IMG/VR virus record: IMGVR_UViG_3300017766_001853
Location: 1 to 35,404 of that record
Source: a virus
Lineage: Duplodnaviria; Caudoviricetes
Length of the DNA stretch: 35,404 nt
Strand: one strand, 5' to 3'
Program-made: the position numbers and the translations under genes
Shown here: positions 2,676 through 29,142 of the stretch, one piece after another
How positions within the stretch are numbered: the stretch's first letter is position 1
Layout of the letters: the number at the start of each line of letters is the position of its first letter
Notes under the pieces: model-generated
Seen by the model: the letters and a program-made list of their open reading frames with translations, nothing else
Databases searched by the model: none
Told to the model about the DNA's origin: nothing

Positions 2676-3862
2676 TGGCAATCACACTTGACGCAACGAC
2701 CAAGATCATTGAACTCACGACCAGCTCTACTGCTGACATCGACTATGCGGTGTCGTGGGTGGACGCGACGACTACGGTGTTCACCCCCGGCGATGGTCAC
2801 GGCACGATCAACACGGCTACGACTACGACCATCGTTGCGGCTCCTGCGGCTAGTACCCAGCGTGGCCTAAAGTCCATCTCGGTGTTCAACCGTCATGCTA
2901 CTACGGCCAACACCGTGACCGTGAAGAAGGATGTCAGCGGCACGGAGTACTGCCTGTTCAAGGCAACGCTCATGGCTGGCGAGTCGCTGCAATGGAATGA
3001 CGGCAGCGAGTGGTGCGTGTACGACGCAACGGGCGACAAGAAGGTGAACAGCCCCGTCAATGTGGGCGTGACGGGTCGTGTGATCCCGATCAACAAGGTG
3101 GGCACGGCGACCGAGGGCACGGCGTACTGGTACTCGTTCGGCAAAGACGCAGGCTTCACGGGCGCATGGTCACCCGGCACGCCGGGCCTAAACGGTCGAG
3201 CAACAGACGGCACAACCGCTGCGGACAACGGCAGCTTGACGCTGTGGACACCGACAGGCTCGCTTTACATTACCGAGACGGCGGCGACCACGACCACGCT
3301 CTGCACGATCATGCTTGCCGATGTCGTGTGGGTGAACACGGGCCTCGTGGTGACGACGACCACGGCTCAGGCGATCACCAGCCCGACCTTCCCTGCGCGT
3401 GACCTGAACGGCAGCACGGACGGCGAGGGCTATGTCATCGGCCTGCTGACCACCACGGCCAATACCAACGCTGCTGCGATCAGCGGAAGCACGGTCAGCT
3501 ACACGAACTCGGCTGGCACGGCGGGTCGCACGGCAACGCTGCTGGCTGTGGCTGGCGACCAGATCCCGCCGACCCCCGTGATCGGAACCGTGGTGTGGTT
3601 TCAGTTGGCTGCTGGCGACAAGGGCGTGCGCTCGATCCAGAGCGTGACGCTGGGCACATCGCTCGGCGGCGGTGCGGTGTCGCTGATTGTGGCTCGACCG
3701 CTGACCGTACTGTCTTGCACGCAGGTCAATGTTGCTACGCCCCGTAACTACAGCGATCCCGGCATCCGCATCTACACGGGGTCGGTGATCATCCCCTTCA
3801 TCAAGAACATCAGCTCCTCGGCTGTGACGCTGACGGGCCATGTTGTGGTGACTGAGCGATGA
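2675..3862 (+). CDS. Thr-rich beta-structured virion protein, possible receptor-binding or fibre partner
   Basis: 395 aa, TGATG overlap with the upstream gene, very T/G/A/V-rich, tail-module position. Confidence 0.55.
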   Translation: MAITLDATTKIIELTTSSTADIDYAVSWVDATTTVFTPGDGHGTINTATTTTIVAAPAASTQRGLKSISVFNRHATTANTVTVKKDVSGTEYCLFKATLMAGESLQWNDGSEWCVYDATGDKKVNSPVNVGVTGRVIPINKVGTATEGTAYWYSFGKDAGFTGAWSPGTPGLNGRATDGTTAADNGSLTLWTPTGSLYITETAATTTTLCTIMLADVVWVNTGLVVTTTTAQAITSPTFPARDLNGSTDGEGYVIGLLTTTANTNAAAISGSTVSYTNSAGTAGRTATLLAVAGDQIPPTPVIGTVVWFQLAAGDKGVRSIQSVTLGTSLGGGAVSLIVARPLTVLSCTQVNVATPRNYSDPGIRIYTGSVIIPFIKNISSSAVTLTGHVVVTER

Positions 3863-6984: not shown

Positions 6985-9900
6985 ATGCAACAACAAAGCC
7001 CCTATCACGGACTCAAGAACCTCGACGATGCAATGGCCGAGGGCATGGAGCGCTTCCAGTCTGTGTCGCAGCGCTTCCGCGACCTAGCGGACATGGGGGC
7101 CGACCAAGCCACCGTGCAGCGTGAGGCTAAGCGCCTTGGCTATGCGCCCATTGCTGCGGGCCAAGACGGCAAGATGGTGGACTACACCGACATGGTCACG
7201 CGCCGCGCTGACATGACGGTAGGCGAGCACTTGCAGGACGTAGCGGCTGGCTTTGGTAGAGGGCTTGCTAACCTGCCTGCTGACGTTGCCAGCCTCGCGG
7301 CTATTCCGTTCCAAGCTGCTGGGTACGACGGCGTGTCCAACTTCGCCAACAAGTACCGCGAAGGTGTAAACGAGCTTATCCCTACAAGCAACAAGTACCG
7401 CACCTCCATCGCCGAGCAGGTAGGCGGCGGTCTATCCACAATCGCTGGTGCGGCTGCTGGTGGCGCTGGCCTTGCCCGTCTTGGCGTGAAAGGCGCGACG
7501 GCTGCTATGGCCTCTCGCGGGCTTACGGGCGAAGCTCTAGCCGCTGCACAGCGTTCTACGTTTGCCTCGCTGGCCGCCAAGAAGTCGTTGCAGCTAATGA
7601 CCGTCCAGGGCGCTGGCGCTGAGGCTGGCGCTGCGCAGGCCGCAGGCGCGGGAGCGGGCGCAACTATCCTTGCTGCCGCTGGTGGCGCTGCCACAGCACA
7701 GCTAGAGCGATTTGGCTCGGTGAAGATCCTCGGCGAGATCTTTGGCGCTGGATCGCAGGCTGCTGGCCGGATGACTGGCGGCAAGGCGCTCAAGAGCGTT
7801 GCCGGTGGTTTTGCTGGTGAGATTGGTGAAGAAGTTGTTGCCGCCCCCATCTCTACTATTGCCAGAAGCGGATACGAGACAGACCCGTTCTCCAAGAGAC
7901 TTCAGCAAGAACTAGAGGGCACGCTCAAAGTTGCCCCGTTGGTTATCCTGCCGTTCACAGCGGTTCACGGAATCCGCGCATCCCAGATGGTGCGCCGCGA
8001 CAACGAGCTCGCCAAGGCACTGCCTAGCAAACTTGCTCCAAAGCTAGAGGGCGTTGCTGAGGGCCAGATTCTTGATCGTCAAGTTCGCACCGTGGATGAG
8101 ATCCGCGCTGACAACCCCGAGCTTGCTGATCAGCTAGAGCGTGTCGGCGCTCGCATTTCCGGCCCTGACGGCAAGCCCGTCAAGCTCAACTCCAGCTCGG
8201 CGGCGACGCAGCGCGTTCAAGCGCTTGGCGAGGCAATTACCGAAAGCGGCGCTCGCGTTGTGTACTTTGAGCCGGAAGGCGAAGACGCTGGAGATGTTGC
8301 GGGGTTCTACGACAAGGACACTGCGACCATCTTCATCAACAGCAAGCAGTCCGAGAACGTGCAGATCATGCAGGGCATGTTCCACGAGCTGCTGCACGAC
8401 ATCTATCAGGACAGCCCTGGCGGTCTCACGCAAATCCACGAGCGGCTTCAGCAGGCGTTTGGCGACAACTACACCAAGTTCATGCAGAAGGTGGCCAACA
8501 CCTACAAGGACCAGAAACTTACAGAAAGCGAGATGACCGAGGAGTACGTCAACAACTTCCTCGCCCAGGCCATGCCTGGCTACATGGCCATGGCTGTCAC
8601 GTCTAAGGACATGTTCAAGATGGCGGCATACCGCGATCCTGGCTTGGTCTTTGACATCTCCAGAATCCTGTCCAACTTCCTTGGACGGTCTATGGACAAG
8701 TACACCCAGCGCGAACAAGCCATCTTGGCTCAGCGCATGGAGAACATCGCCAACGAACTCCAGGGCGACTTCGCCATGGACCCCAACGCAGCTGTCAAGG
8801 TAGATCCCATGACGGCTGTTCGCGTAGCTGGCGAGGTAAGCGCCGCTATGCAACAGGCGCTAGAACTGCGCTCGCAGGCTATCCCGGAGATTCGCCGCGC
8901 TCTGGAGAATCCCGATGTAGAAGTGTCGCCTGAGGGCGTTGTCAGAAGGCCTGTAGCTGTTGAACGTACCGGCGGCGGCGGTGTTGGCGGCATGACGTTC
9001 AGCGACAGACTTGTGTCGTCTAGCGTTGCCTCGGAAGGGGTGAACGACATGGCCAGCAAGCTGTATCCGGGACGCACTGGACCCAAGCTGGCAAGCGATG
9101 TCTACGAAGTGGTAGATGACCCCACAGCGGAGGGGGGCGGAACCAAGCTGCGCAAGATTGCAAGCGCGGGGGATGAGTACACTCCGCAGATTGCGGCTGA
9201 CGTAAAAGACGCAGTATCCCGCGATGCTTTGTACGGCGAAGTCAAGTTCGACAGCAATGACATCGTAATCAACCTTGCCAAGCGTGTGATGCGCTTGGAT
9301 ATCCCTGCTCAGTACCGGGCGCTTGGACGGGCTATCCAAAAGGTTGCTGAATCAACAGATCGCTTTGCTGGAGCCGAAGCTGATGTTGGCGTAGACGCAG
9401 AGGCAGGCGGCGAAGCCCTGGCCGCTCAGGTTGCTCAGCTGCAAGAGCAGCTGAAGTCTCGGAAGTCTCTACCTGCTGGCTCGCCGGAGCGACGCGCCGT
9501 GCAAGCCCAGCTTGATGTCATCCGCGAGCGCTCTAATGCCTACCGCCGACAAACCGCCGCTAGGTCTAGCGAGGAAATCAGAAAGCAGTCAGAGCGGGTA
9601 AAAGACATCGTCTCCAAGATGCTGGCCGCTGAGGCCATCGTCAAGTACGGCCAGGACTACAGCACGCTCACGGACGAGCAGAAGAACCTTGTCCGCATTG
9701 ATGCCGAGAAGCGCCTCGCTGGCTTCACTGGCGTAGACGACCCCGGCTCCATGCGCATGCCGTTCATGCGCGACACGTCAGCTTTCCGTCGTGGCTTCAA
9801 TCCGGAGCGTGCAGCCAAGCCTTTGGAACAGCGCGGAGAGGAAGCATCTTCAGAGGCTGCCGCACTGGCTACGGCTCGACGCGAAGCTGAGTTTGAGCGT

Positions 9901-12900
9901 GAGTACTCTGCGCTTGAGCAGGAAGAGAAGCTGCAAGGCATTGCTCGGGAAGAAGAGCAGGCTCGCCAAACAGAGCTTGCGGCCATTGCCAAGTACGAGC
10001 AGCAGTTTGCTGAGATGGAGCGTGAGGAGGCACAGCGTACGGCGGACATTGCTGCCGAAGAGCTGGCCATCATGCAGGAGATGTCCAAGGAGGAGGCCAA
10101 GCCTCTGTCCGAGCGCCAGGGGCTTTCTGACCAGCAGAAGGTTGCCATGTACCTGATGGCGCGGGAAGTCATCCCGACGCTCATTGCGCAGCGCAAGCGC
10201 CTGCCCCGTAACCAGCAGCCGCCTAACCTGCGTCAGGCGCTGAAGGAGTACTTTGCGCTAGAAGACGAGTTGCGCCGCAAGTACCCGGATGCTGAAGACT
10301 GGAAGCGCAAGCGCCTAGGAAAGCCAACTCAGCCGTTCCAAAAGCCTACACCCCGTAAGGATGTAGCCCCCAAGAAGGGCGAGACGGCTTTGCAGGCTGA
10401 GATTCGTGGCAAGTACGGCTCGGACCTGGAAACGCTGGGCGAAGAGCAGCGACTGTTGGCCGACTCACGCAAGGCAATCGCGTCCATCTTCAAGGCAGTC
10501 AAAGACAAGGCTGACCTTCCGCGCAACGTTGGAGCAGGAGCATTCGCTCCAGTTGCTGAGTTCAGCAAGCGAACCGCCGGAGCCCGATCCACGACTGGGG
10601 GGCAGCGCCAAGCGCCGTTTACATCCGTCAACGGAAGAAGCCTGGAAGACATCGCGGCGGAGATCTACACAGACCACACGGCTGCGCAAAAGCTCCGCAA
10701 GAACCGTGGAGACAAAGTGCAGGTTGCACGCCTAGAAGCAAAGGTCGCCGACAACCTGAAGCTGCTTGATCGCATCTCCAACACGCAGAAGGCGCGCATC
10801 AACAAGATTAGCGACATCAAGCGCGAGGTGCGAGCTAAGTCTGGTATCGCAGCTCCAACCTTTGGGCGCGACAAAGCCAAGCCTGCCGCCGCCACCGAGG
10901 CTGCCCAGCAGCAGCCTGCGCAAGAGCAGACTCAGGCTCAAGAGCAGGCTGAGACTAAGCCCGCTGAGGCTACTGAAACACAGCAACAGCAAGAGCAGGA
11001 GCAGACGCAGGAACAAGAGCAGCAGACCGTCGAGTTTGACCCTGAGACGTTTGAGCCTAGCGATGACGCCCTGGAGGTTTTGTCGTCCGAGCCTACTCTC
11101 AATGAGGCATACCGCGCAGCAGTAGCCGAGGCAGGAAACGAAGGCCTTGCATTCTTCAGCGGCTACTTGCCGCAAGACGCAAGTGACAAGCAGATGGACG
11201 CGATGGAGGTCCTGCGGGAAAAGTACGAAGAAGGCGTGCAAGAATTTGCTGACGCAGCCGACATTCGCCGCATTCTGTATACAGACCAGCTTGCAAAGCC
11301 ACCCGAATCAGTCGTGGCCTACCGCGTTGACACCACTTCTGGTGTCCCCGAGATTGATGTGATTGCCGTAAACGTGGTCACCGGAGCAGTTCGCCTTGTG
11401 CCAAGGCAGGAAACTGCTGACCACGTTTCCAAGCGACCCGACGCAGAGGTTGAGCGCAGCTTCAATATGCGCCTAGAGGGACTACTGGAAGACTATCGCC
11501 GCGAAACCCGTGGCGAGCGCCAGCAGCAACAACAGCAGGACGAGGAAGGCGACGAGGAAGCGCCAGCCCCTAGCGCCTCTGTAAGTCCACTGGAAATCCC
11601 AGGCATGCAGCCGATGGAGGTGTTTTCCTTCGGCGGTCGCGTCATGGCCGTAATTGACATTGACGGGCAGAAGGTTCCGTTCTACAGAAGCTCTGGAAAA
11701 AACAAAAAGCCTGGCGTATCAGGCGGCCTCTGGTACCCGTTCATGGGAGTGACGGCGTCAGAGAACGGTGAAGTTACATGGATTGCCAAAACCAGCGACG
11801 TTGGGAACTTCTACGGAATTGAAAAACTAAAGCAGGCCGCTGAGTTCTTGAACAACAAGTACTCAATGGAAGCCATGGCGGATGACTCGGTCCCCAACGT
11901 CGCAGCGGAGGGCATGAAGGCCGGTGTTCACAAGACTGGGAAGAACGCCAAGACGCGCACCGCTGAGTACCTAAACTCCCTTACCGGGTATGGGATGGAT
12001 TACCATCCAAGCCGCAAAGACAAGGACGGGGACCAGAAGTTTACTGATTTCTCCAAGCAGTACCTGTCGCGGCTTTCACAGGCTTTGTCAGCCCAGAAGC
12101 CAGCCCCTGCGGCGGCTAGAACCGGCGTCCCAACTACCGCAGAAGAACAAATCCAAGCCGGCATTGACTTCCTTGGCAACGAGTCTACGGCTGGAAGGAC
12201 GGAGCTGTACATCAAACTGCCACAGCTCGCCTCTATGGCGTCTGTTGTCCCGCTTCCTGGGTTTGGTCCGTCGTTTATCCGTGTCCCATCTGGTCCTGAT
12301 GGCAAGCCCATGAAGATCGAGGTGATGTACATGCTGATCAACTGGGGATCAATCACCCCATCGCACACATACAGCCAAGGAAAATTCAGAAAGAACAAAG
12401 ACGGCGACATCAACGAACGCCCGTACGACGATCCCGAGGCGGGCAAGAACTTGCGCCGCGACTTCGAGGCCAACCTCGAAAACTTTGACCCGGCGTTTGT
12501 TTTGTCCACGGACAACACCGCAGTCAATGGCCCGCCTGTAATCACAGCACGGGGCGTTGTCCTGGGGGGCAACTCTCGCGCGATGATGTTGCAGTCCCTT
12601 AGCCGTGAGCAGCGAGATGCGTACGAAAAGGCGCTCAAGGACACTGTCTCGTCTTTGCCGTATTTTGCTGACAAGGAGTACAAAGACTTTGATCCGTTTG
12701 GTGGCACGGTTCTCGTCCGCGTCATCAAGCCTGGTCAGCAAGGCAAGCCTGGCGAGCTGTCTCCGTTCCTCAACGAGTCGTTCACTGCCAGCCGCGAGGT
12801 CAATGCACGCGCCACTTCGCGGGGCGCACGCCTCAAGCCCGAGACTGCATCCCAGCTTTCCAATGTCATTGGCGACCTGACCATGCGAGGTGCCTTGGGC

Positions 12901-15900
12901 GTGCCTAACAAAAGCGTCGAAATCCAGCAGTTGTTGTTGGGCGACGGCGTGTTCACTGAACGCGAGCTTGATGCCTTGCGCGACAAGAAGGGCCAGCTTA
13001 CGGACCAGGGCCGCTCAGAAGTTGAGATGGCCGTGCTCGGCGCTGTCGTTAACGATGTGCGCGTCATGTCTGAGGTCGAGCCCAGCACGATGCAGAAGAT
13101 CGTTGGCTCAGTTGCCCCGCTCTTGCGGATCATGGCGGCGGACCCGTCATCCCGCCAGTCCATCGAGAACGCTATCGACGTGCTGAACTACATGAAGGCC
13201 AACGACATCAGGCTCGACGAGCTTGATCGTCAGCAGTTTGCCTTCACAGATAAGCAGGCCTGGCGCGACGACCAGCTCGCCAAGGATCTTGCGGCCATTA
13301 TGAGCCTCGGCAAGCTGAACGCCGCCAAGGCCCTTTCCCGCATCGCTGTCGAGGCTGAGGCTGCTGGCACCAACCAGGGCGACATCTTTGCTGTTATCGA
13401 GCCCGGCAAGCCCAAGCTAAGCGCAGCCGAGACTGTGCGCGAAGAAGCCCGCCAGATCAACAGCCGCGATAAGGATGAACGCGCTGGAGAGGCCAAAACA
13501 CAGAGCGGCTTCAAGCCCATCTTGTCTCCGTCAGAAATCCCTGAGGGCTTGAACCTAGACCTGGACATCAACATCCAGCAGCTGACAGACATGGCTCGTT
13601 CCTATGAGGCGCAGACAGACCCGCTGGTCAAGTCGGCAATTGAGTCCCAATACAACCGCCTCGCCAACCTTATCATCAAGAAGGTCAAGGATGCCCAGGC
13701 CAAGAACAAGGACAAGTTCTTCAAGCCTCTCTACGAATCCGTCATTACCAAGGTCACCCAACGCGCCAACGTAGCTAACCACCCACGCCTAGGCGATGGC
13801 CTGGCCAAGAAGGGTGGCGGCGATGTCATGTTCAGCCGTCGGCTCGTGGAGACGGAAGACGAGCGCTTGCTGCGACTCGCTACACGCAAGCCGGAAGAAC
13901 TGCTGCGCGTGTCGTCGTCCACCGAGCAAGGCCGTCGTGAAGGCGCTGGCGCTGTCGGCTTCTTGAACTCTGTCTACGAGAACGCTGTTGACGCCGAGGC
14001 CGCGCTGCGAGAAGTCGAGCGCAAGATCTCTGAGTCAGCTGATGCCCAGGCAAAGCTCATTGCTGAAGGCAAGCTGCCTGACGACGTGGAGCGCTACAAC
14101 TACAACAGCGCCAAGCATGCTGTTAGCGACATGCTTGACCTGTACCGTGGACGTATCGGCGAGAACAACAAGATCGCCATGCAGTTCCGGCAGGACATGA
14201 TTGATGCCGCCAAGAAGCACGGCATCCCCATCACGCCTGAAGATGCTGCTGACACGGACATGGTCAGCGCAGAGGACTACCTGTACGCTACGCACGCAGA
14301 AGAGGCAAACAAGGCCATTGCGTATGACCGCGCAGAGGAGCGGTTCGACAAGTCCAAGCGCGGCAAGGACATCAAGAAGGAGATCCGCAAGCTGCGTAGC
14401 TTTGTCGTTGGCGAGCGCGGCAAGTCCAAGCGCGACGATGGCAAGGACCCGGACTTCGACAAGATCGACGAAGCGCTGGCCAAGATTCAAGAGCTTGAAG
14501 CTGAGCGCGATGCGGTGGTGAAGGGTGAGGTTGACAACTCCTACGTCCAAGCCAAGGCCGCTAAAGCAGAGATTGCCAAGCTAGAAGCTGACATCAAGCT
14601 GCTTCCCAAGGACTCCTCTGCGCGTAATCGCCTGGAGGTTGACCTCAAGGAACAGCGTGACCTGTTGGCTGAGTCGACCAAGGATCACTCTGGCTCCGGC
14701 ATGACGGACGAACAGGCCAGGGAGATCCTTGACCGCGTCAACAAGTCGCCTGAGGGCACAAAGCTCAACGGCGCGATTGCTGGCTACAAGGACATTCGCA
14801 CGGCTATGACCGGCTTGCAGGCTGCGAAGCTCAAGATCCAAGTGGACTCGGGCCTCGTCGACCCTGACACGGCGGACAAGTGGCGCGAACGGTATGGCCC
14901 CAACTATGTACCGCTGAAGAGCACGATCCGCCCGCCTGATGGCAACGGGTTTGGCTCTAGTGGATTCAGCATCAAGGGCAAGGAGACCGAGTCCCGTAAG
15001 GGCCGCGCTACCTTGGCTGATGATCTGATTGGCCACTCACTGGTTGACTTCTCGCACGCTAACAGCCGTGCCATGAAGAACCTGGTGATGAACTCGTTTG
15101 TACGCTTGGCTGAGTCAAACTCCAAGCTGAGCATCTGGACCGTTGTCGGCACACGCAAAGACTGGGAGAAGGGTCTCAAGAGCGGCCTGTACGACGAGCG
15201 CGACAACCGTCGCATTGTGTCGGTCAAGCGCACTCAGACCTATGAGGATCCGTTCACTGGCGAGCTTGCAACTCGAACCACTGAGCGCATCGTCTTGGTC
15301 AACGACGAAGGCCTTGCGCGAGCCCTCACGCAGATGGACGGCATCGACATGGGCTCGTTCACGGCTGGTGCGATTCGCGCTACGCGATTGTTCACCAAGA
15401 TGCAGACGGCATGGAACCCTGCGTTCATCCTGCCGAACTTTGCTCGTGACGTGCTGTTGGCTGTCGGCATCCGCTACACAGACAACGGCCTCGGTGCCTC
15501 GCGCAGACTCGTTGCCAACATCGTTCCCGCTCTGCGCACCATCCTGGCCGTGGAACTGGGCAGCACAGCTATCGGCAAAGCTCTTGGCTTTGACAAGATG
15601 AAGGCTGGCAAGTTTGACCTGGAGTACCGCGAGCTTCGCAACCTAGGCGGCTTCTCCAGCCCCGTCGATTACGGCACCGTGACAGAGCAGATGGATCGCC
15701 TCCGCAAGGAATCGGCCCGTCCTAGCAGCGTCTACGGCAAGGCTGTTGAGTCTCAGCGTAATGCAGCCAAGAACCTGTTTGAGTTCGTGGAAGCCATCAA
15801 CACGGTCGTTGAGCGGGCCACGCGCTTGGCTGCATATGTCGAGTTTGACGAGACGATGGCTCAGGACGCAGCAACTTCCGGCAAGCGCTACATGCGCGGG

Positions 15901-17070
15901 TCAGAGAAGATCAAGCGTGCTGCCGCCACCAAGAACCTGACGGTCAACTTCGACCGCCGTGGTCGCGCTGGCCACATCCTGAACTCGCTGTATGCGTTCT
16001 ACAACGCAAACGCCCAGGGTACAGCCAACTTGATTCGCCGCGTTGGACCTAGCGCAACGCCCGAGCAACGTATGCGTGCAGGCATCGCCATCGCGTTCCT
16101 GTCTACGGCAGGCTACGCCATGTCGCTGCTGGCTCGCGCCATGGGCGATGACGACGAGCAGGGCGAAGAGGCATACAAGGGCCTCGCTGCCGACGAGCTA
16201 CAGAAGAACATGGTCATCATGTTGCCTGGAGCCAAGAGTTCCAGACTGACAGTGCCCCTTCCCTGGGGTATGAACATGGCCTATTTCGCTGGCGTTCAGA
16301 TGGAGCGACTGGCCTCTGGCCAGATTGATGCACAGACAGCAGCCGAAGAGTACACAAGCGGTTTGCTTGGCTCGTTCTCTCCGATCACTGGCCCCACTGC
16401 ATCGCTGGCCATCGTGCCGACGCTGGCTCGTCCGTTCGCGGAAATCACTGCGAACATGAACTACGCTGGCAACACGATCATGCCGCCTGTTGACCCGTAC
16501 GATAAGACGCCTCTGCCTGACAGCCGTCGCGCCTACCGTACTGTTGGTGCTCAGTCCCGTTGGGTGGCTGAGACTCTCAACGACTTCACTGGCGGAGACG
16601 AGCGTACGTCAGGCATCATCGACGTGTCGCCCGAGTCCATCGAGCACATCGCCGAGTTCATGTCTGGTGGAGCTGGCCGCTTCGTGCAGAACGCATTCGG
16701 CCTTGACCTGTCCCGCGAGGAACGCCAGATCCGCGACATCCCCGTTGCCGGTGCTATTGCCGGTCGCTTCGTGCGTGAGTCCGACACCAACCAGCGGACC
16801 ATCACCGAGTACTACGCCAACACCGACAAGGTGGCTCGCCTGCGCGAGGACCTCAAGGACCCACGCACCAGATCCGAGTCTATGTCAGACCCGCTCCGTG
16901 CTGTTGACCGCTACGCCACGGCCATCGAGGGCAAGCTACGCAAGCTCAAGGACGCCGAGCGCCGCGCTCAGAACTTTGGCAACGCAGAGATGGTGAAAAA
17001 TCTGTCAGCTCAGCGCATCCAGCTGATGCAAAGCTTCAATCGCCGCTACAATCAAGTCTCCGAACGCTGA
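6985..17070 (+). CDS. Large polyvalent protein (3361 aa), probable major ejection protein
   Basis: Ala/Gly hydrophobic N-terminus; AGFYD...IFIN...FHELLH...EE zincin-like region (HELLH at 8383-8397); GPPVITARGVVLGGNSRAMML ddrB/ParB-like motif (~12300-12830); LPD38-like C-terminus (NLTVNFDRRG...LYAFYNANAQG...VPLPWG...PFAEITANMNYAGNTI). Confidence 0.8.
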   Translation: MQQQSPYHGLKNLDDAMAEGMERFQSVSQRFRDLADMGADQATVQREAKRLGYAPIAAGQDGKMVDYTDMVTRRADMTVGEHLQDVAAGFGRGLANLPADVASLAAIPFQAAGYDGVSNFANKYREGVNELIPTSNKYRTSIAEQVGGGLSTIAGAAAGGAGLARLGVKGATAAMASRGLTGEALAAAQRSTFASLAAKKSLQLMTVQGAGAEAGAAQAAGAGAGATILAAAGGAATAQLERFGSVKILGEIFGAGSQAAGRMTGGKALKSVAGGFAGEIGEEVVAAPISTIARSGYETDPFSKRLQQELEGTLKVAPLVILPFTAVHGIRASQMVRRDNELAKALPSKLAPKLEGVAEGQILDRQVRTVDEIRADNPELADQLERVGARISGPDGKPVKLNSSSAATQRVQALGEAITESGARVVYFEPEGEDAGDVAGFYDKDTATIFINSKQSENVQIMQGMFHELLHDIYQDSPGGLTQIHERLQQAFGDNYTKFMQKVANTYKDQKLTESEMTEEYVNNFLAQAMPGYMAMAVTSKDMFKMAAYRDPGLVFDISRILSNFLGRSMDKYTQREQAILAQRMENIANELQGDFAMDPNAAVKVDPMTAVRVAGEVSAAMQQALELRSQAIPEIRRALENPDVEVSPEGVVRRPVAVERTGGGGVGGMTFSDRLVSSSVASEGVNDMASKLYPGRTGPKLASDVYEVVDDPTAEGGGTKLRKIASAGDEYTPQIAADVKDAVSRDALYGEVKFDSNDIVINLAKRVMRLDIPAQYRALGRAIQKVAESTDRFAGAEADVGVDAEAGGEALAAQVAQLQEQLKSRKSLPAGSPERRAVQAQLDVIRERSNAYRRQTAARSSEEIRKQSERVKDIVSKMLAAEAIVKYGQDYSTLTDEQKNLVRIDAEKRLAGFTGVDDPGSMRMPFMRDTSAFRRGFNPERAAKPLEQRGEEASSEAAALATARREAEFEREYSALEQEEKLQGIAREEEQARQTELAAIAKYEQQFAEMEREEAQRTADIAAEELAIMQEMSKEEAKPLSERQGLSDQQKVAMYLMAREVIPTLIAQRKRLPRNQQPPNLRQALKEYFALEDELRRKYPDAEDWKRKRLGKPTQPFQKPTPRKDVAPKKGETALQAEIRGKYGSDLETLGEEQRLLADSRKAIASIFKAVKDKADLPRNVGAGAFAPVAEFSKRTAGARSTTGGQRQAPFTSVNGRSLEDIAAEIYTDHTAAQKLRKNRGDKVQVARLEAKVADNLKLLDRISNTQKARINKISDIKREVRAKSGIAAPTFGRDKAKPAAATEAAQQQPAQEQTQAQEQAETKPAEATETQQQQEQEQTQEQEQQTVEFDPETFEPSDDALEVLSSEPTLNEAYRAAVAEAGNEGLAFFSGYLPQDASDKQMDAMEVLREKYEEGVQEFADAADIRRILYTDQLAKPPESVVAYRVDTTSGVPEIDVIAVNVVTGAVRLVPRQETADHVSKRPDAEVERSFNMRLEGLLEDYRRETRGERQQQQQQDEEGDEEAPAPSASVSPLEIPGMQPMEVFSFGGRVMAVIDIDGQKVPFYRSSGKNKKPGVSGGLWYPFMGVTASENGEVTWIAKTSDVGNFYGIEKLKQAAEFLNNKYSMEAMADDSVPNVAAEGMKAGVHKTGKNAKTRTAEYLNSLTGYGMDYHPSRKDKDGDQKFTDFSKQYLSRLSQALSAQKPAPAAARTGVPTTAEEQIQAGIDFLGNESTAGRTELYIKLPQLASMASVVPLPGFGPSFIRVPSGPDGKPMKIEVMYMLINWGSITPSHTYSQGKFRKNKDGDINERPYDDPEAGKNLRRDFEANLENFDPAFVLSTDNTAVNGPPVITARGVVLGGNSRAMMLQSLSREQRDAYEKALKDTVSSLPYFADKEYKDFDPFGGTVLVRVIKPGQQGKPGELSPFLNESFTASREVNARATSRGARLKPETASQLSNVIGDLTMRGALGVPNKSVEIQQLLLGDGVFTERELDALRDKKGQLTDQGRSEVEMAVLGAVVNDVRVMSEVEPSTMQKIVGSVAPLLRIMAADPSSRQSIENAIDVLNYMKANDIRLDELDRQQFAFTDKQAWRDDQLAKDLAAIMSLGKLNAAKALSRIAVEAEAAGTNQGDIFAVIEPGKPKLSAAETVREEARQINSRDKDERAGEAKTQSGFKPILSPSEIPEGLNLDLDINIQQLTDMARSYEAQTDPLVKSAIESQYNRLANLIIKKVKDAQAKNKDKFFKPLYESVITKVTQRANVANHPRLGDGLAKKGGGDVMFSRRLVETEDERLLRLATRKPEELLRVSSSTEQGRREGAGAVGFLNSVYENAVDAEAALREVERKISESADAQAKLIAEGKLPDDVERYNYNSAKHAVSDMLDLYRGRIGENNKIAMQFRQDMIDAAKKHGIPITPEDAADTDMVSAEDYLYATHAEEANKAIAYDRAEERFDKSKRGKDIKKEIRKLRSFVVGERGKSKRDDGKDPDFDKIDEALAKIQELEAERDAVVKGEVDNSYVQAKAAKAEIAKLEADIKLLPKDSSARNRLEVDLKEQRDLLAESTKDHSGSGMTDEQAREILDRVNKSPEGTKLNGAIAGYKDIRTAMTGLQAAKLKIQVDSGLVDPDTADKWRERYGPNYVPLKSTIRPPDGNGFGSSGFSIKGKETESRKGRATLADDLIGHSLVDFSHANSRAMKNLVMNSFVRLAESNSKLSIWTVVGTRKDWEKGLKSGLYDERDNRRIVSVKRTQTYEDPFTGELATRTTERIVLVNDEGLARALTQMDGIDMGSFTAGAIRATRLFTKMQTAWNPAFILPNFARDVLLAVGIRYTDNGLGASRRLVANIVPALRTILAVELGSTAIGKALGFDKMKAGKFDLEYRELRNLGGFSSPVDYGTVTEQMDRLRKESARPSSVYGKAVESQRNAAKNLFEFVEAINTVVERATRLAAYVEFDETMAQDAATSGKRYMRGSEKIKRAAATKNLTVNFDRRGRAGHILNSLYAFYNANAQGTANLIRRVGPSATPEQRMRAGIAIAFLSTAGYAMSLLARAMGDDDEQGEEAYKGLAADELQKNMVIMLPGAKSSRLTVPLPWGMNMAYFAGVQMERLASGQIDAQTAAEEYTSGLLGSFSPITGPTASLAIVPTLARPFAEITANMNYAGNTIMPPVDPYDKTPLPDSRRAYRTVGAQSRWVAETLNDFTGGDERTSGIIDVSPESIEHIAEFMSGGAGRFVQNAFGLDLSREERQIRDIPVAGAIAGRFVRESDTNQRTITEYYANTDKVARLREDLKDPRTRSESMSDPLRAVDRYATAIEGKLRKLKDAERRAQNFGNAEMVKNLSAQRIQLMQSFNRRYNQVSER

Positions 17071-18322: not shown

Positions 18323-18583
18323 TCAGTTGCTGGAGCCCGCAACGAGCGGCTGAAGCGAACTATTGCAATGCAGCAAGGTCTTGCGAACCTCGTCGCTGGC
18401 TCCGTTCATCTTCGACGCTTCCAACATCTCGTCCATGATCTTGCCAACGCGGCGCAGCACTCGTGCTTTCTCGCGGTTGTCAAGCTTAGCAAGACGATCA
18501 GCCAGTTCCTTGCGGCGCTCCTCAGCGCTACGACGACGGCGGGTCTTCACGACAACGCCATCGGTGGTGGTAATGTTAGTCAT
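18323..18583 (-). CDS. 86-aa Arg-rich coiled-coil protein, possible nucleic-acid-binding regulator
   Basis: ATG 18583 lies 6 nt after a consensus -10 box. KTRRRRSAEERRK motif. Flanked by its own promoter and terminator. Confidence 0.7.
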   Translation of the reverse strand: MTNITTTDGVVVKTRRRRSAEERRKELADRLAKLDNREKARVLRRVGKIMDEMLEASKMNGASDEVRKTLLHCNSSLQPLVAGSSN

Positions 18584-18589
18584 GCGAGC

Positions 18590-18618
18590 ACTATATGTAG
18601 TGTAATCGTCAATGTCAA
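18590..18618 (-). promoter_or_regulatory. Sigma70-type promoter for a leaderless mRNA
   Basis: Minus strand TTGACA-17nt-TATAGT-gctcgc-ATG. Confidence 0.8.
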
Positions 18619-18623
18619 TACAC

Positions 18624-18656
18624 AAAAAAGTAGACCCGGCTCACAACCGGGCCTAC
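18624..18656 (-). terminator. Intrinsic terminator of the putative sRNA
   Basis: GTAGGCCCGG-TTGTGAG-CCGGGTCTAC-TTTTTT. The single imperfection is a G-U pair only on the minus strand. Confidence 0.85.
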
Positions 18657-18740
18657 CGACCAGAACAGACAACAGACTGAAGGCTCGCAACCTTCCTGAC
18701 CTATCCGAGCAGGGCTCACAACCCCCTCCAACTTTCCAAC
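18624..18740 (-). ncRNA. Putative phage small RNA with three hairpins sharing one loop motif
   Basis: Promoter TTGACT-17-TACAAA upstream. Three GG-TTGYGAG-CC stem-loops with different outer stems (18711-18725, 18679-18695, 18630-18656). The last is followed by T6. Confidence 0.7.
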
Positions 18741-18746
18741 GCGCAC

Positions 18747-18812
18747 TTTGTACTACGCCCCTGCAAGTTAGTCAATACAGATATTGACTTTTTTCTTATC
18801 GAAAAGCACCAT
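18747..18812. promoter_or_regulatory. Back-to-back divergent promoters around palindrome GTCAATA-caga-TATTGAC
   Basis: Minus: TTGACT (18770-18775)-17-TACAAA (18747-18752). Plus: TTGACT (18784-18789)-17-CACCAT (18807-18812)-6nt-ATG of the helicase. Confidence 0.65.
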
Positions 18813-18818
18813 GTGTGT

Positions 18819-20216
18819 ATGACTACCAGACAACACGGTGACCCTAAAGCCGAGAAGGACTTGCTTGGACTACTCATCAACTCGCCGCACCTCATCTCTG
18901 AGGTGTCGGAAGTCGTGTCCCCTTCGCACTTTACAGGAGACAGGGGCAAGCTGGTCTACGAGGCCATGCTGGCGCTGCACGGCAACGGCCAGATCCTAGA
19001 CTTCTCGTTGCTGTGCGACGAGCTAAACTCGAACGGCACGCTCAACAAGGTTGGCGGCAGGGCTGAGATTGCGGCTCTTGCTGGCAGGTACACCAACGAT
19101 GCGTTCATGGGCCACCTTGCTGGCCGCATCAGAGCACACGCTGCCCTGCGTGACCTTGGAGCTGTTGCGTCCGAGCTGCTGAACGAGAGCCAGTCGTCCA
19201 AGCCCGAGGAGTCGTCCATCCTCGACTTGGTGGACAAGGCGCAGGCGAAGCTCTCAGACATCATCTCATCAAACAAACAAGATGACGTCGGTGAAGCCTG
19301 CACCGAAATCGCATCCGTAGCCGAGATGCTGGTCAAGCCTAGGTCGTCCTCCATGCAGGGCGTGCCCACTGGCTTCCTTGACCTAGACGATGTGTTGTGC
19401 GGCCTGCGCCCCGGGCAGCTTGTCCTGTTGGCTGCTCGCTCTCGCGTCGGCAAGACTAGCCTCGCCTGCGACATCGTGAGGCAGGCCGCTACGGACAACC
19501 GCACCGTTGTATTCTTCTCCTTGGAGATGACGCGCCAGGAGATCTGGGAGCGCATGATCAGTGGGCAGGCTGGCATCAGCCTTCACGACATGCGGATGCG
19601 CGAGGCCACCGACGAGGAAAAAAATAAGGTCTCGTACGCTGCATCAGAGTTGGCGTCAATGTCGATCATCGTGAAGGACACACCCAACACGACGCCGCTT
19701 TCCATGCGAGGCTTCTCGCGCAAGATCATCAGCCGCAAGGGGAAGATCGACCTCATCGTGGTTGACTACCTACAGTGCATCCAGTCCGGCAAGGACAGGC
19801 AGTCGCGCTACGAGCTTGTTAGTGATGTGTCTCGCCAGATGAAGGTACTTGCCCGCACGCTGAACGTGCCTGTGCTTGCGCTGGCACAGCTAAACCGCAC
19901 GGCAGAGGACGAAGAGCCTCGCCTGTCGCACCTGCGCGAGTCAGGCGGCCTAGAGCAGGACGCTGACGTTGTTCTGCTGCTGAACAGGCCGCATGTGTTT
20001 GACAGCGAGAAGGATCCGACACTTGCAACTGTCGACATCGCCAAGCACCGCAACGGGCCGTGCCAGATGATCAACCTTCACTTCGAGGCTGGCAGCGTGA
20101 GTTTCAGGAACAGGGCTCCGAAGATTGAGGACTTCAGCAAGGTCTCGCAGGACTCGCCAGTGGCACCGCCTAGGAAGAAGAAGACCAACTGGTACGAGAA
20201 CGGACAGTTCGACTAA
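18819..20216 (+). CDS. dnaB: Replicative DNA helicase, DnaB family
   Basis: N-terminal AEKDLLG...F domain; motifs AARSRVGKTS, FFSLEM, IVVDYLQ, LAQLNR, LRESGGLEQDADVV, IAKHRNGP. Confidence 0.97.
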   Translation: MTTRQHGDPKAEKDLLGLLINSPHLISEVSEVVSPSHFTGDRGKLVYEAMLALHGNGQILDFSLLCDELNSNGTLNKVGGRAEIAALAGRYTNDAFMGHLAGRIRAHAALRDLGAVASELLNESQSSKPEESSILDLVDKAQAKLSDIISSNKQDDVGEACTEIASVAEMLVKPRSSSMQGVPTGFLDLDDVLCGLRPGQLVLLAARSRVGKTSLACDIVRQAATDNRTVVFFSLEMTRQEIWERMISGQAGISLHDMRMREATDEEKNKVSYAASELASMSIIVKDTPNTTPLSMRGFSRKIISRKGKIDLIVVDYLQCIQSGKDRQSRYELVSDVSRQMKVLARTLNVPVLALAQLNRTAEDEEPRLSHLRESGGLEQDADVVLLLNRPHVFDSEKDPTLATVDIAKHRNGPCQMINLHFEAGSVSFRNRAPKIEDFSKVSQDSPVAPPRKKKTNWYENGQFD

Positions 20217-24079: not shown

Positions 24080-24234
24080 TTGCTTGGCCGATGATGTTTG
24101 CTTGCTTAGCCGATGATATTTGTACACCGCGTAGCGCGTGCGCGCAAGTGCGCGTGCGCGTGCCCGCATGTACGCGAGGCCCCCTAACGCCCAGCTATAG
24201 GAATAAAGCCTACGCACATTAGCGTATAGGAATA
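24080..24234. repeat. Cluster of direct repeats and an alternating purine/pyrimidine tract
   Basis: TTGCTTRGCCGATGAT at 24080 and 24102 (22-bp period); GCGCGTGC-type tract 24134-24163; TATAGGAATA at 24196 and 24225. Confidence 0.75.
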
Positions 24235-24338
24235 TCTTCGCCGATTGCCATGATCTGCACATCGACGAGCCCGACATCGTTGTCGTGCTTGCCGTTCTCA
24301 CAACCAGACCGACCGATATCAAAAACAGACAGACAGCT

Positions 24339-25403
24339 ATGACAACCCAGAACCCGAACCCCTTCAGCGGCCTCGATCAGTACATCCGTAGCGTAGCCGA
24401 GAGCGTTGTGGAGTCCACGATGGGCGAAACGACCAAGGCCATGCGTACCAACGACCTCGACATGCCTTCCCGCAGTCGTGAGTTTATCCGTCAGGAACTC
24501 GCCAGCATGGCCGACTCGACCCGTGCGGCCCTTGTCGAGGGGACAGCGAACGCCGCCCGCCCGTACACGGCTGGCGTGTCGCCGCACTTCGTTGAAACCA
24601 CTACGGCCAAGTCTATTCGTCGCGCCATGGCCACGGCCAAGGCTGCCGACCGTTGGCTTGTGATTGTGTCCGGCCCCGCCGGAACTGGCAAGACCTTCCC
24701 CGCGCTGCAAGTCTCCCTCCGCACTGGCCGCCCCGTCTACCCCGTCGAGATCAGCGAGGCCACCACTCTGGACGACCTCTTTATGCGTCCGTGGGTGACT
24801 GGCCCGTCCACGATGGGCTGGGTGGAGGGCCCCGCAGTCCGCGCTGCACGCGAGGGCGGTATCCTTCTTCTGGATGAATGCGACCTAGCCAGTCCGCGCT
24901 TGATCGGCGGCCTTCACGGCTTGCTTGAGTCTGGACAGACCCGTCTGCGCTCAGGTGAATGGCTTCAGGCGCATCCCGACTTCGTGGTGATTGCCACCTG
25001 CAACGGCCTGCGGAGCAGCAAAGGCACCTATTCGACGCACTCGATTAGCACGGCCTTCGCCGACCGCGCCGTGTTCGTCGCTGCCGACTACCTGCCCGAG
25101 GCCGACGAGATCGCTATCCTGTCGCGCTACGGCTCCCCCGAAGCAGCCGCAGATACGCGCAGCGACCTTGTTGTCCTGCGCCGGATGTTCGAGGCTGGCG
25201 GGCTTCGCATCGCCCCGTCTACGCGCCGTGGGGCCGTTGTGGTCGCGGCCTTGGCCGCTGGTGCCAGCCGCGCCGATGCTTGGCAAATCGCTATGGTTTC
25301 GGGCTTGGACTCGAAGACTGCCGAGGAAGTAGGCCGCCAGCTAGCCGCCGCAGAAACGGCCCGCCAGTTGTCCGTCCCGACCGCAAACGGTGTCCTCCCC
25401 TGA
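24339..25403 (+). CDS. MoxR-type AAA+ ATPase (CbbQ/NirQ/NorQ/CobS-like)
   Basis: Walker A GPAGTGKT, Walker B ILLLDE, WVEGPAVRAAREG, HPDFVVIATCN, AFADR. Confidence 0.92.
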   Translation: MTTQNPNPFSGLDQYIRSVAESVVESTMGETTKAMRTNDLDMPSRSREFIRQELASMADSTRAALVEGTANAARPYTAGVSPHFVETTTAKSIRRAMATAKAADRWLVIVSGPAGTGKTFPALQVSLRTGRPVYPVEISEATTLDDLFMRPWVTGPSTMGWVEGPAVRAAREGGILLLDECDLASPRLIGGLHGLLESGQTRLRSGEWLQAHPDFVVIATCNGLRSSKGTYSTHSISTAFADRAVFVAADYLPEADEIAILSRYGSPEAAADTRSDLVVLRRMFEAGGLRIAPSTRRGAVVVAALAAGASRADAWQIAMVSGLDSKTAEEVGRQLAAAETARQLSVPTANGVLP

Positions 25404-25424: not shown

Positions 25425-26843
25425 ATGACGAAGAGAAACAGGTACAAGAGTCACAAGAAGGCCAGAGGATCGTGGTGGGACTCTGCCGCGCTATGGGAAT
25501 CCGATGACAGCTACGGCGAAACAACCTCGTGGCTGGACAAATGGGACGGCTCCGAGTTCAGGAAGAGCCGTCATCGCATCAATGACGGCTTGGTCAAAGA
25601 AGCAGGTGTCGCCGCAGCCGCAACCGTGCATGCCGCGCTCGACCGTAGAGCTAAGGGCCTGCACATTGAGGGCATTGACTCCTACATCATCGCCACAGCC
25701 AAAGCATGGGGTGGTGAGAAGTTCAGTACCGTGGCGTACGACCGCGCGCTTCGCAAGTACGCAGAACAGTCTGGCAAGGACTGCGGCCTCAAGGGTAAGG
25801 CACTCGAACGGCACACGGACGGATTCGCCGCCAGTGCGGCCCTCGACCTCTTGACGATTGACCAATGGACGGCCTTCGCCAAGTACTACATCCCCGACAG
25901 CTCTAACGGTGCTCCTATGATTGCGTCCGCAATCAAGAAGGTAGCTTCCGATACGATGCAAGCATCGAACGGAACGGGCCACCCGTCCACCGACCGCCGT
26001 ATGAATCAGGCCGTGCCGGACGCGACTAACGCAGACGATGCTTATTACGCAGAATCTGACGAGAAAGACAGGGCTCTATCGGCCAAGACCGGGTTGCGTT
26101 ACGACAAGATCGAGGCAAGGGAGCGCATCGACCTGTCCGGCTTCCGTGCTTCGGCGCAGTATCTAGCCACCGCTCTGGAGGACAGCCGCCGCGAGTACCT
26201 CCTAAGTGAATGGTCTGGTTCTCGCCTTGGTAACGATGCAGCCCTATGGGCCAGCGGGGCGAGCTTCTCGCCCTTCGCCGAGCCTGACATGATGCTGGGC
26301 GGGTTGTGCGATGTTCTGATCTTGGTCGATGCATCGTCCTCTACCATTGACGACGAGAAGACGAATGTGATCTTGTCCACCGTGGCGCACGACTTCGCTG
26401 TTGCGCTTCGCGGGGCCGGACACGGCGCGGCTGTTGTGCCGTGGTCCCACTACAACGGTGGCCTATACAACCGAGAAGGGGCAACGCTCTGGAATGATCC
26501 GATTGACAGCGGCAACTGGCCCGTATGGGGCTGGGGCGGAACTGGCTTGGGTTGTGCAACAAGGGCGGCCCGCATGGCCTTCTCGTTGTGCAGCTCCGGC
26601 AAGAGGCGCAAGATCGCTCTGATCTTGACGGACGGACATACGAATGGCCGTCCTAATGAAGGCGATAGCCGCTCCTATTGGAACTTCGGTTCCGATCTTA
26701 GCGTTCTCTGGGCCGTTGGCCGCTTCGCTAAAGTACCCGACGACTGGAGCGGTCCGAGCCTTCACAGTCTATCGTCTCTGACGATGATGGACGACTTGCT
26801 CGCATCCGATGCGGTCAGGTATCTCTCCGGCCTTAGCCACTGA
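25425..26843 (+). CDS. von Willebrand factor A domain protein, partner of the AAA ATPase
   Basis: MIDAS elements ILVDASSS, GGT and LILTDG in the C-terminal half; directly follows the ATPase. Confidence 0.85.
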   Translation: MTKRNRYKSHKKARGSWWDSAALWESDDSYGETTSWLDKWDGSEFRKSRHRINDGLVKEAGVAAAATVHAALDRRAKGLHIEGIDSYIIATAKAWGGEKFSTVAYDRALRKYAEQSGKDCGLKGKALERHTDGFAASAALDLLTIDQWTAFAKYYIPDSSNGAPMIASAIKKVASDTMQASNGTGHPSTDRRMNQAVPDATNADDAYYAESDEKDRALSAKTGLRYDKIEARERIDLSGFRASAQYLATALEDSRREYLLSEWSGSRLGNDAALWASGASFSPFAEPDMMLGGLCDVLILVDASSSTIDDEKTNVILSTVAHDFAVALRGAGHGAAVVPWSHYNGGLYNREGATLWNDPIDSGNWPVWGWGGTGLGCATRAARMAFSLCSSGKRRKIALILTDGHTNGRPNEGDSRSYWNFGSDLSVLWAVGRFAKVPDDWSGPSLHSLSSLTMMDDLLASDAVRYLSGLSH

Positions 26844-28682: not shown

Positions 28683-29142
28683 CATGACAGACCACCAAGT
28701 CGGAACCAGTCGTGCTCGACGATATCGCAGGCTTGCAGGCCGGACTGGATCGGTGGCGGATGGAGAGGGGGAAGAGGGACAGGGGGATCGGTGGTGGTTG
28801 ACGGCCTGTTGCCACGAGGGCCGTCCCCGTCGACCAGCTCGCGCTTGGCTCGACTACGGGAAAAAGGCTTGCCTAACAACCCCCAAAAAAATTTCCAGTC
28901 TTTCCCTCTCTATTTCTTTCCTACTATCCTGTTGTGTTCTTTGTTTACGGAATACCACTATCGTGGTATGCGTTCTTTATCTATAGTTGTGTGAGAGTGT
29001 GTGGCTAGTACACTCCCCCTCCAAACTGGGGGACCCTACTGGGGGCTCGGTGTATCTTAGCTCCAACGTACATTCAGCACTACCCTATCCCCCTACACAC
29101 CCCCTCTAAAAGAGGGACCCATCAGGAAAGCTACTCCCCGCC

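Follow-up and report, generated by a model that had tools for sequence, protein, structure and literature searches.

Between dnaB and a small basic ORF of an uncultured lake phage lies a short interval in which three hairpins on one strand share a single tip, and the question it raises is what such an element does. We addressed this in the window, the whole stretch of DNA analyzed, which is the full 35,404-base virus record. Among freshwater metagenomes, 7 of the 24 listed runs contain at least half of the record's words, and 2 of those 7 are possible sources; no run of RNA was listed among the 24. PHROG matches (38 ORFs) include terminase, portal, capsid, and tail proteins, DnaB, a RecE-like exonuclease, an annealing protein, and a CobS-like AAA ATPase; no integrase, repressor, or antirepressor was annotated among these 38 ORFs, and no tRNA genes were found in the window. 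A 3361-aa protein encoded at 6985-17070 (+), with a weak metalloprotease match near its N-terminus and a conserved C-terminal 800 aa, is probably an ejected internal virion protein.

The element is placed between dnaB (plus strand, ATG 18819) and the 86-aa ORF (minus strand, ATG 18583), and reads as a predicted small RNA of about 117 nt on the minus strand (18624..18740), composed of three hairpins and a U tail, with ends inferred from sequence. An initial annotation described three hairpins with different outer stems and one core, GG-UUGYGAG-CC, and this description holds exactly: GGTTGYGAGCC is present on the minus strand in three perfect copies, at 18713-18723 (hairpin 1, GGUUGUGAGCC), 18682-18692 (hairpin 2, GGUUGCGAGCC), and 18638-18648 (hairpin 3), each capping a hairpin with a different outer stem. 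No further copy exists in the 35,404 bases with one mismatch allowed. Dinucleotide shuffling of the 117-mer gave a triple of 11-mers with one free position in 0 of 2000 trials, and no other 120-nt segment of the genome contains one. Hairpin 3 and its U run (18624..18657, minus strand) were called as an intrinsic terminator of 13 pairs, 7 of them G-C, by a terminator scan, so that the third core copy is the terminator itself, as had been annotated. The proposed promoter, TTGACT-17 nt-TACAAA (18747..18775, minus strand), can be read by eye, but its -10 box lacks the final T and it is absent from the promoter scan output, which at this locus gave only the promoter of the downstream gene. Its -35 box stands back to back with that of dnaB, 8 nt apart. 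Such back-to-back boxes 8 nt apart are observed in three lineages (window 18770-18789; L119 about 1540-1570; L120 about 3795-3820), and the palindrome they form could also be an operator.

The predicted folding energy of the unit is -45.1 kcal/mol for the minus strand (z -2.55, equaled by 4 of 200 shuffles) and -24.4 kcal/mol for the plus strand. Some finer details of the initial annotation need correcting: a GNRA loop is possible only with a bulged U, ViennaRNA giving either a UGYGA pentaloop or a GYG triloop, which differ by no more than 0.2 kcal/mol, and stem imperfections are not solely G-U, since a bulged G interrupts hairpin 1 as well. Most of the tip is base-paired in the predicted structure, with 3-5 nt open. 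Next to the tips, a G/U-rich, weakly paired tract, GUCUGUU-GUCUGUU-CU-GGUCGGU, occupies 18655..18677 (minus strand). The RNA matches no family in Rfam at gathering score, as the initial annotation had anticipated; 5 weak matches were returned up to E 10, none of them C4. A scan of viral contigs for the repeated-core pattern gave 0 stretches, and the same scan of metagenome contigs (8 of 64 parts) gave 118 loci that on inspection resemble tandem or coding repeats, with no promoter-hairpin unit among them; a scan for the 20-nt tract pattern gave 0 matches. One unrelated metagenome contig (L092 274-360) carries four tandem 26-nt hairpins capped by GUUGUGAGC, directly past a stop codon.

Several readings of the repeated core were tried and rejected. 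A tRNA anticodon mimic (UU-GUG-AG, His-like) would have G at position 38, and the relatives lack such loops. As an origin or iteron array, the core copies are irregularly spaced, and better repeats are found at 24080-24180. In type III toxin-antitoxin loci, RNA repeats in tandem are transcribed together with the toxin gene that follows them, which belongs to a known family; here the repeats are 11-nt cores and not tandem units, and the adjoining ORF comes with a promoter of its own and matches nothing in Pfam or PADLOC.

That adjoining ORF (18323..18618, ATG 18583, minus strand) lies 3' of the RNA unit and encodes a basic 86-aa protein. Its own promoter, TTGACA-17-TATAGT, matches the consensus at 11 of 12 positions in the promoter scan, and the predicted RNA is therefore not its leader. 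The N-terminus of the protein is Arg-rich, conserved, and opens with KTRRRRSAEERRK. Only weak PHROG matches and 2 homologous clusters were found, with no match in Pfam or PADLOC and none usable in the ESM Atlas. On the other side, the divergent dnaB helicase gene (18784..20216, ATG 18819, plus strand; PHROG 19, 7.5e-89) has a likely leaderless promoter, TTGACT-17-CACCAT. Both dnaB and the 86-aa ORF look leaderless, with the ATG 6-7 nt past the -10 box.

The DnaB clade comprises 14 further proteins at 55-81% identity, and DNA was read for four relatives, G001 to G004, all syntenic with the window, of which G004 ends before the unit. DnaB identity to the window is 58% for G001 and 61% for G002 and G003, the latter two having RNA units of identical type. 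At the same place, the relatives carry a promoter (TTGACC-17-TATCAT in G001, TTGACG-17-TACATT in G002), 123 nt (G001) or 115 nt (G002) of stable hairpins, and a U-tailed terminator, and the unit is adjoined in both by the same ORF family as in the window. A promoter-terminator layout of 115-123 nt is thus kept in three lineages. The RNA bodies of the window, G001, and G002 do not align, the 11-mer core is absent from G001-G004, and the related loci L119, L120, and L296 have no match in Rfam. No small ORF over the unit is common to the lineages; the 34-codon GTG ORF that crosses the terminator, raised in the initial annotation as what might be conserved instead of the RNA, is not conserved in the relatives examined. 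Position and layout in three lineages, strand-biased folding, and the lack of a conserved ORF or an Rfam match support the annotation of a novel phage small RNA. The unit is old while its sequence changes fast, which fits a co-changing partner better than a fixed host protein.

At closer range, the four near-identical strains that cover the whole RNA (X3, X4, X5, X19) differ at 18703/18704 only, outside all pairing blocks; the remaining four strain runs cover it partly or not at all. A diverged 8.8-kb contig (X13) keeps of the intergenic region only 18656-18695, with 35 of 40 bases identical, and this island corresponds to hairpin 2, core included, and the GUCUG tract. G001 has GUCU repeats at the position equivalent to the tract and retains the plain terminator 3' of the 86-aa ORF, including its GAAA loop. 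Wider searches gave no DnaB at or above 60% identity in the annotated phage collection (25 listed at 31-36%), only ordinary DnaB loci at 32-42% identity in a DnaB-alignment scan of genome contigs (6 of 64 parts), and no new lineage with the unit in nuclease and ATPase scans of viral contigs, which returned one extra fragment without the leader.

Several other features of the related loci were observed. The terminator of G001 (L119 1683-1712) has a stem homologous to hairpin 3 and a loop, TCACAA, that is the reverse complement of the TTGTGA of the window, as if inverted. The AAA-vWA operon is inverted in G002/G003 (L213 8681-12664) relative to the window and G001. G004 (L122 251-420) has a small ORF of the G002 type, yet its nuclease is 80% identical to that of the window, compared with 56% for the G002/G003 nuclease, a pattern suggestive of recombination where the nuclease begins. 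Over-extended gene calls read GPQP and QQQ 5' of dnaB (P0036) and PHN 5' of the ATPase gene (P0065), a codon-level hint, not evidence, that the motifs are kept in those lineages.

A partner of this kind is predicted 5.6 kb away, in the leader of a MoxR-type AAA ATPase gene (24339..25403, plus strand, 354 aa; Pfam AAA_5 1.6e-21). The protein has matches to NorQ, CbbQ, CobS, and midasin, and its relatives are named MoxR-like ATPase. The gene is followed by a vWA/CobT-like partner gene (25425..26843, plus strand), likely co-transcribed with it, whose product has ESM Atlas feature matches of 0.92-0.94 to VWA/CobT_C clusters at TM <0.5 and with a poor structure model, and no match in Pfam or NCBIfam. 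The C/A-rich leader (24297..24338, plus strand) contains CUCACAACC at 24297-24305, ACCGACC at 24308-24314, and AACAGACAGACAG at 24324-24336. Seven ACA triplets fall within the last 45 nt ahead of the start codon, no Shine-Dalgarno sequence is present, and the predicted fold of the leader is largely unpaired, mostly open from -45 onward; the transcription start in the window is weakly predicted. Directly 5' of the ATPase promoter, 22-bp direct repeats that look like a replication origin (window 24080-24180) occur with CCTACG/CGTAGG inverted motifs (window 24080-24240; L208 3770-3980), in larger number in G001, and this array is likely a replication origin or operator array.

Two elements of the RNA are complementary to this leader. 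The tract is complementary to -15..-3 of the ATPase start: ACCGACC and then AACAGACAGACAG are the ordered complements of the GGUCGGU and GUCUGUU repeats of the RNA, down to -3. The tip is complementary to -42..-34, where CTCACAACC, the complement of tip GGUUGUGAG, is found at 24297-24305, 42 nt upstream of the start codon. The first 9 nt of the hairpin 1 core are complementary to this site, and hairpin 2 matches it with one mismatch, being the GCG copy, so that three tips face a single leader site. CTCRCAACC occurs 4 times in the genome, 3 times in the RNA gene and once in the ATPase leader, with 0.61 expected in all; this match was not among the patterns searched for, as the leader was reached via the tract complements, and the tract/leader match was itself noticed before the statistical tests were designed. 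The suggestion in the initial annotation of a base-pairing regulator is supported by this specific candidate target.

The best local alignment of the RNA complement against both genome strands falls at 24297-24336, with a score reached by 2 of 100 shuffled RNAs. The window leader (-50..+15) contains 17 complementary 6-mers against a maximum of 14 in the other 70,680 segments of 65 nt, a count that none of 1000 shuffles of the RNA and none of 1000 shuffles of the leader attained; tests with k = 5 and 7 agree, and k = 8 is weaker. The duplex between RNA nt 62-101 and the leader is predicted at -41.1 kcal/mol before the unfolding cost and about -22 net, a single tip duplex at -15 kcal/mol, and that of the GCG copy at -11. 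In G001, the leader contains 19 complementary 6-mers against a maximum of 16 in 84,206 segments (0 of 1000 in both shuffles). This leader is GGACAGACAGACAGG-rich and the G001 RNA carries a perfect 14-nt complement, CCUGUCUGUCUGUC, a match found in 0 of 200 leader shuffles, with binding of -27.8 against -9.3 +/- 3.2 (0 of 100). In both the window and G001, the leader is therefore the best genome-wide 6-mer complement of its cognate RNA, with RNA and leader differing between the two. The tip and CTCRCAACC are both missing from G001-G004, being present or absent together, and the G001 RNA has a 12-nt match to the window leader because the ACAGAC repeat is common to both leaders. A second perfect 14-nt complement to the G001 RNA (5' hairpin arm) is located near the end of the G001 vWA-like gene (L208 6600-6613).

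Ranking of gene starts with accessibility placed the ATPase start 1 of 30 in the window, 1 of 24 in G001, and 3-4 of 20 in the G002/G003 lineage, against ranks of 22-23, 9, and 10-11 with the reverse-complement RNA as a control; these lists were compiled by hand, with some starts approximate and three of the 20 taken from G004. Part of this ranking signal comes from composition, the RNA being G/U-rich and the leader C/A-rich: with shuffled RNAs, the ATPase still comes out on top in 3 of 25 trials for the window and 7 of 25 for G001, and the window cofolding energy was matched by 10 of 100 shuffled leaders. The local alignment is not significant for G001 (35 of 100 shuffles), where the best site is in the vWA gene, 1 point above the leader 14-mer, or for G002 (74 of 100). 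The G002/G003 leader has 4 six-mers, with 12% of segments as good, which is not significant, and its ATPase rank was reached by 12 of 25 shuffled RNAs. Seed complementarity that changes with the target was thus seen in 2 of 3 lineages and is not significant in the third, with three lineages available in all. DnaB and ATPase homologues (clusters P0005-P0018 and P0060-P0067) point to at least ten more lineages.

Other start regions also have complementarity to the RNA. Nine nucleotides of the tract are complementary to dnaB nt +9..+17 (18827-18835), and CAGACAACA is found only in the RNA gene and at dnaB +9. The complementarity extends over 9 nt in the window and 8 nt in G001, and the genome contains 35 perfect 9-mer complements, 3 of them near gene starts; the dnaB start is a possible secondary target candidate only. 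In G002/G003, short GGUCA(U)/AUGACC matches link GGUCAU at the open 5' end of the RNA to the starts of the annealing protein, a small gene, dnaB, and the ATPase, and the annealing-protein start ranks 1 of 20 (0 of 25 shuffles). No significant pairing was found for the 86-aa ORF. The terS leader was rejected as a target, ranking 2-3 of 30 in the window and not in the relatives. Upstream of the probable small terminase gene, two CCCCCUCYAA motifs (window 29011-29110) are complementary to the arm of the first hairpin; this complementarity was not seen for the RNAs of the relatives, and the motifs are possibly upstream of the transcription start. The annealing-protein leader of G001 (L208 1734-1760, minus strand) also has CAGACAGACA and is a possible further target, and in G003 several early genes (L213 9851, 11594, 12664, and 4961, minus strand) start with AUGACCA, complementary to GGUCAU of the G003 RNA, and are likewise possible targets.

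Taken together, these predictions make it probable, with some room for doubt, that the unit encodes an antisense RNA acting in trans on the phage's own AAA ATPase mRNA, where it would cover the region of translation initiation. Under this model, the RNA would be made early, from the promoter back to back with that of dnaB. Pairing could nucleate where any one of the three UUGYGAG tips meets CUCACAA, or else where the GUCUG tract meets the ACAGAC repeats, and would extend to a duplex of about 30 bp over -42..-3. This duplex would occlude an ACA-rich initiation region that has no Shine-Dalgarno sequence and so turn down translation of the early AAA-vWA operon; we infer repression rather than activation because the duplex reaches within 3 nt of the start codon. 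Weaker pairing may occur to the first dnaB codons and, in the relatives, to the annealing-protein leader. The likely purpose would be a negative feedback in which rising levels of the RNA limit early proteins or shut them off. Three tips for one site could serve faster capture or further targets. A more speculative and on balance unlikely extension is that the RNA is a lineage-specific key for immunity or self-recognition, in which the tips and the matching ATPase leader evolve per lineage, the tips have been multiplied to catch incoming cognate leaders fast, and the silenced MoxR-vWA chaperone has a decision-making early function.

The initial annotation had also proposed a multivalent protein decoy by analogy with CsrB/RsmZ. 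Three identical apices on unrelated stems are the classic layout for titrating an RNA-binding protein, perhaps one from the host or else the phage's Arg-rich 86-aa product; the latter begins with KTRRRRSAEERRK, which we take to resemble arginine-rich RNA-binding peptides. We consider this rather improbable, as the loop motif is absent from the G001 and G002/G003 units, and in G001 the apex is lost though its 86-aa protein has an almost identical basic N-terminus. In addition, the four GGA triplets of the RNA all fall outside its predicted loops, and a decoy leaves the ordered complementarity to the ATPase leader without a reason.

It is also conceivable, at small probability, that the RNA mainly silences host or competing-phage mRNAs with ACA-rich enhancers and that the ATPase leader matches because it shares such an enhancer. 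The G/U-rich tract and the seven ACA triplets in the 45 nt before the ATPase start are consistent with this, as is GcvB, described as a repressor that acts by masking ACA enhancers (PMC3879156). For the window RNA, the ATPase and annealing-protein leaders of G001 also rank first and second, and three tips for one phage site suggest more targets. A 40-nt ordered match and a lineage-specific pair of tip and target, however, point to a dedicated cognate target.

Function at the level of DNA appears similarly improbable. The shared blocks would then be binding sites of one regulator or a relic of leader duplication, and the hairpins terminators that insulate divergent promoters. Read as plus-strand DNA, the RNA gene and the leader are indeed direct repeats; the core forms an imperfect palindrome, the TCACAA loop of the G001 terminator looks flipped from TTGTGA, and the RNA bodies cannot be aligned between lineages. 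Against this, G-U pairs favor the minus-strand RNA by 21 kcal/mol compared to 4 for DNA, the core copies are spaced 31 and 44 bp apart, unlike iterons, the origin-like 22-bp repeats are located elsewhere (24080-24180), and a dedicated promoter-terminator unit of 115-123 nt has been retained in three lineages. Finally, although CAGACAACA is limited to the RNA gene and dnaB +9, cognate dnaB starts score best in 3 of 3 rows, and dnaB ranks 2-4 of 30 and 3 of 24 (reached by 0 of 25 and 1 of 25 shuffles), it is very improbable that the RNA chiefly controls replication via the divergent dnaB mRNA or acts as a primer or origin RNA, given that the match is just 8-9 bp with 35 perfect 9-mer complements genome-wide, that G002 dnaB falls to rank 13 of 20 if not treated as leaderless, and that the promoter scan gave no opposing promoter for an overlapping target.

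We regard the feature as real and consider it likely that this phage has a new antisense RNA that acts in trans, with a named target of its own. Viral AAA-vWA pairs are known, and their role is described as unclear in the account cited (PMC7911831). Few phage small RNAs have a named target, and for this phage the RNA, the target, and compensating natural variants are all in hand. If the antisense model is true, phages dedicate an RNA to the control of their MoxR-vWA operon, identical hairpin tips in several copies can act as antisense seeds instead of protein baits, and covariance searches miss such RNAs because the seed drifts in step with its target from one lineage to the next. If the self-recognition reading is also true, antisense control of AAA-vWA leaders would be a general and undescribed layer in phages of hosts that initiate without a Shine-Dalgarno sequence. 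Literature searches, not phrased for exactly this control and covering main texts with few subscription papers, returned no paper that describes this RNA or antisense regulation of an AAA-vWA leader in a phage.

Among known systems, the CsrB/RsmZ decoys repeat an identical motif on hairpin tips, with several GGA motifs in loops. The window RNA likewise repeats one motif on its tips, but it has no GGA in the predicted loops, the motif is not conserved in relatives, and Rfam gives no match. Short phage RNAs that tune phage development by base pairing include lambda OOP and P22 sar, described as antisense to the phage cII and ant mRNAs (PMC12197685), and lambda PreS/LPR1, of which PreS is reported to act on host genes (bioRxiv 10.1101/2024.10.31.621285). 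The window RNA is proposed to act likewise, but does not overlap its predicted target, which is a phage chaperone-like ATPase operon. GcvB of enteric bacteria is described as a host multi-target regulator of amino-acid transport that places a G/U-rich stretch over ACA-rich translation enhancers upstream of the start codon (PMC3879156). The G/U-rich tract of the window RNA is predicted to cover an ACA-rich region in the same manner, but in the phage's own leader, and the RNA has no sequence match to GcvB in Rfam.

In shape, the closest parallel is with the cuckoo RNAs of alphaproteobacteria (RSs0680/CcsR, RF02344), described as 2-4 adjacent hairpins with one loop motif on variable stems and proposed to pair with translation-initiation regions through the loop CCUCCUCCC, an anti-Shine-Dalgarno sequence conserved family-wide (PMC4615179). 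The window lineage alone has this likeness of 2-4 hairpins with an identical loop motif on variable stems. Its tip is UUGYGAG and not CCUCCUCCC, and the RNA is lineage-specific, phage-encoded, without an Rfam match, and matched to one leader of its own that lacks a Shine-Dalgarno sequence. In mode of action, the parallel is with the C4 RNA of P1/P7, described as an RNA of about 77 nt with three stem-loops, cut by RNase P from the operon it controls and acting in trans on the phage icd-ant mRNA with two elements, one over the ribosome-binding region and the other upstream, where it gives specificity and differs between related phages (PMC5320573, PMC8198154). The GUCUG tract and the hairpin tip of the window RNA would play these two roles, judging from their complementarity. 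C4 has a role in lysogeny and superinfection immunity; the PHROG matches of the window name no integrase or repressor. Unlike C4, the window RNA is served by a predicted promoter and terminator of its own, is encoded 5.6 kb away from its predicted target, and carries one tip three times, and neither it nor the L119, L120, and L296 loci match the Rfam models of C4. Our best reading, which we hold with somewhat better than even confidence, is that the window RNA works like the C4 RNA of P1/P7 and is shaped like the cuckoo RNAs while being a member of neither family.
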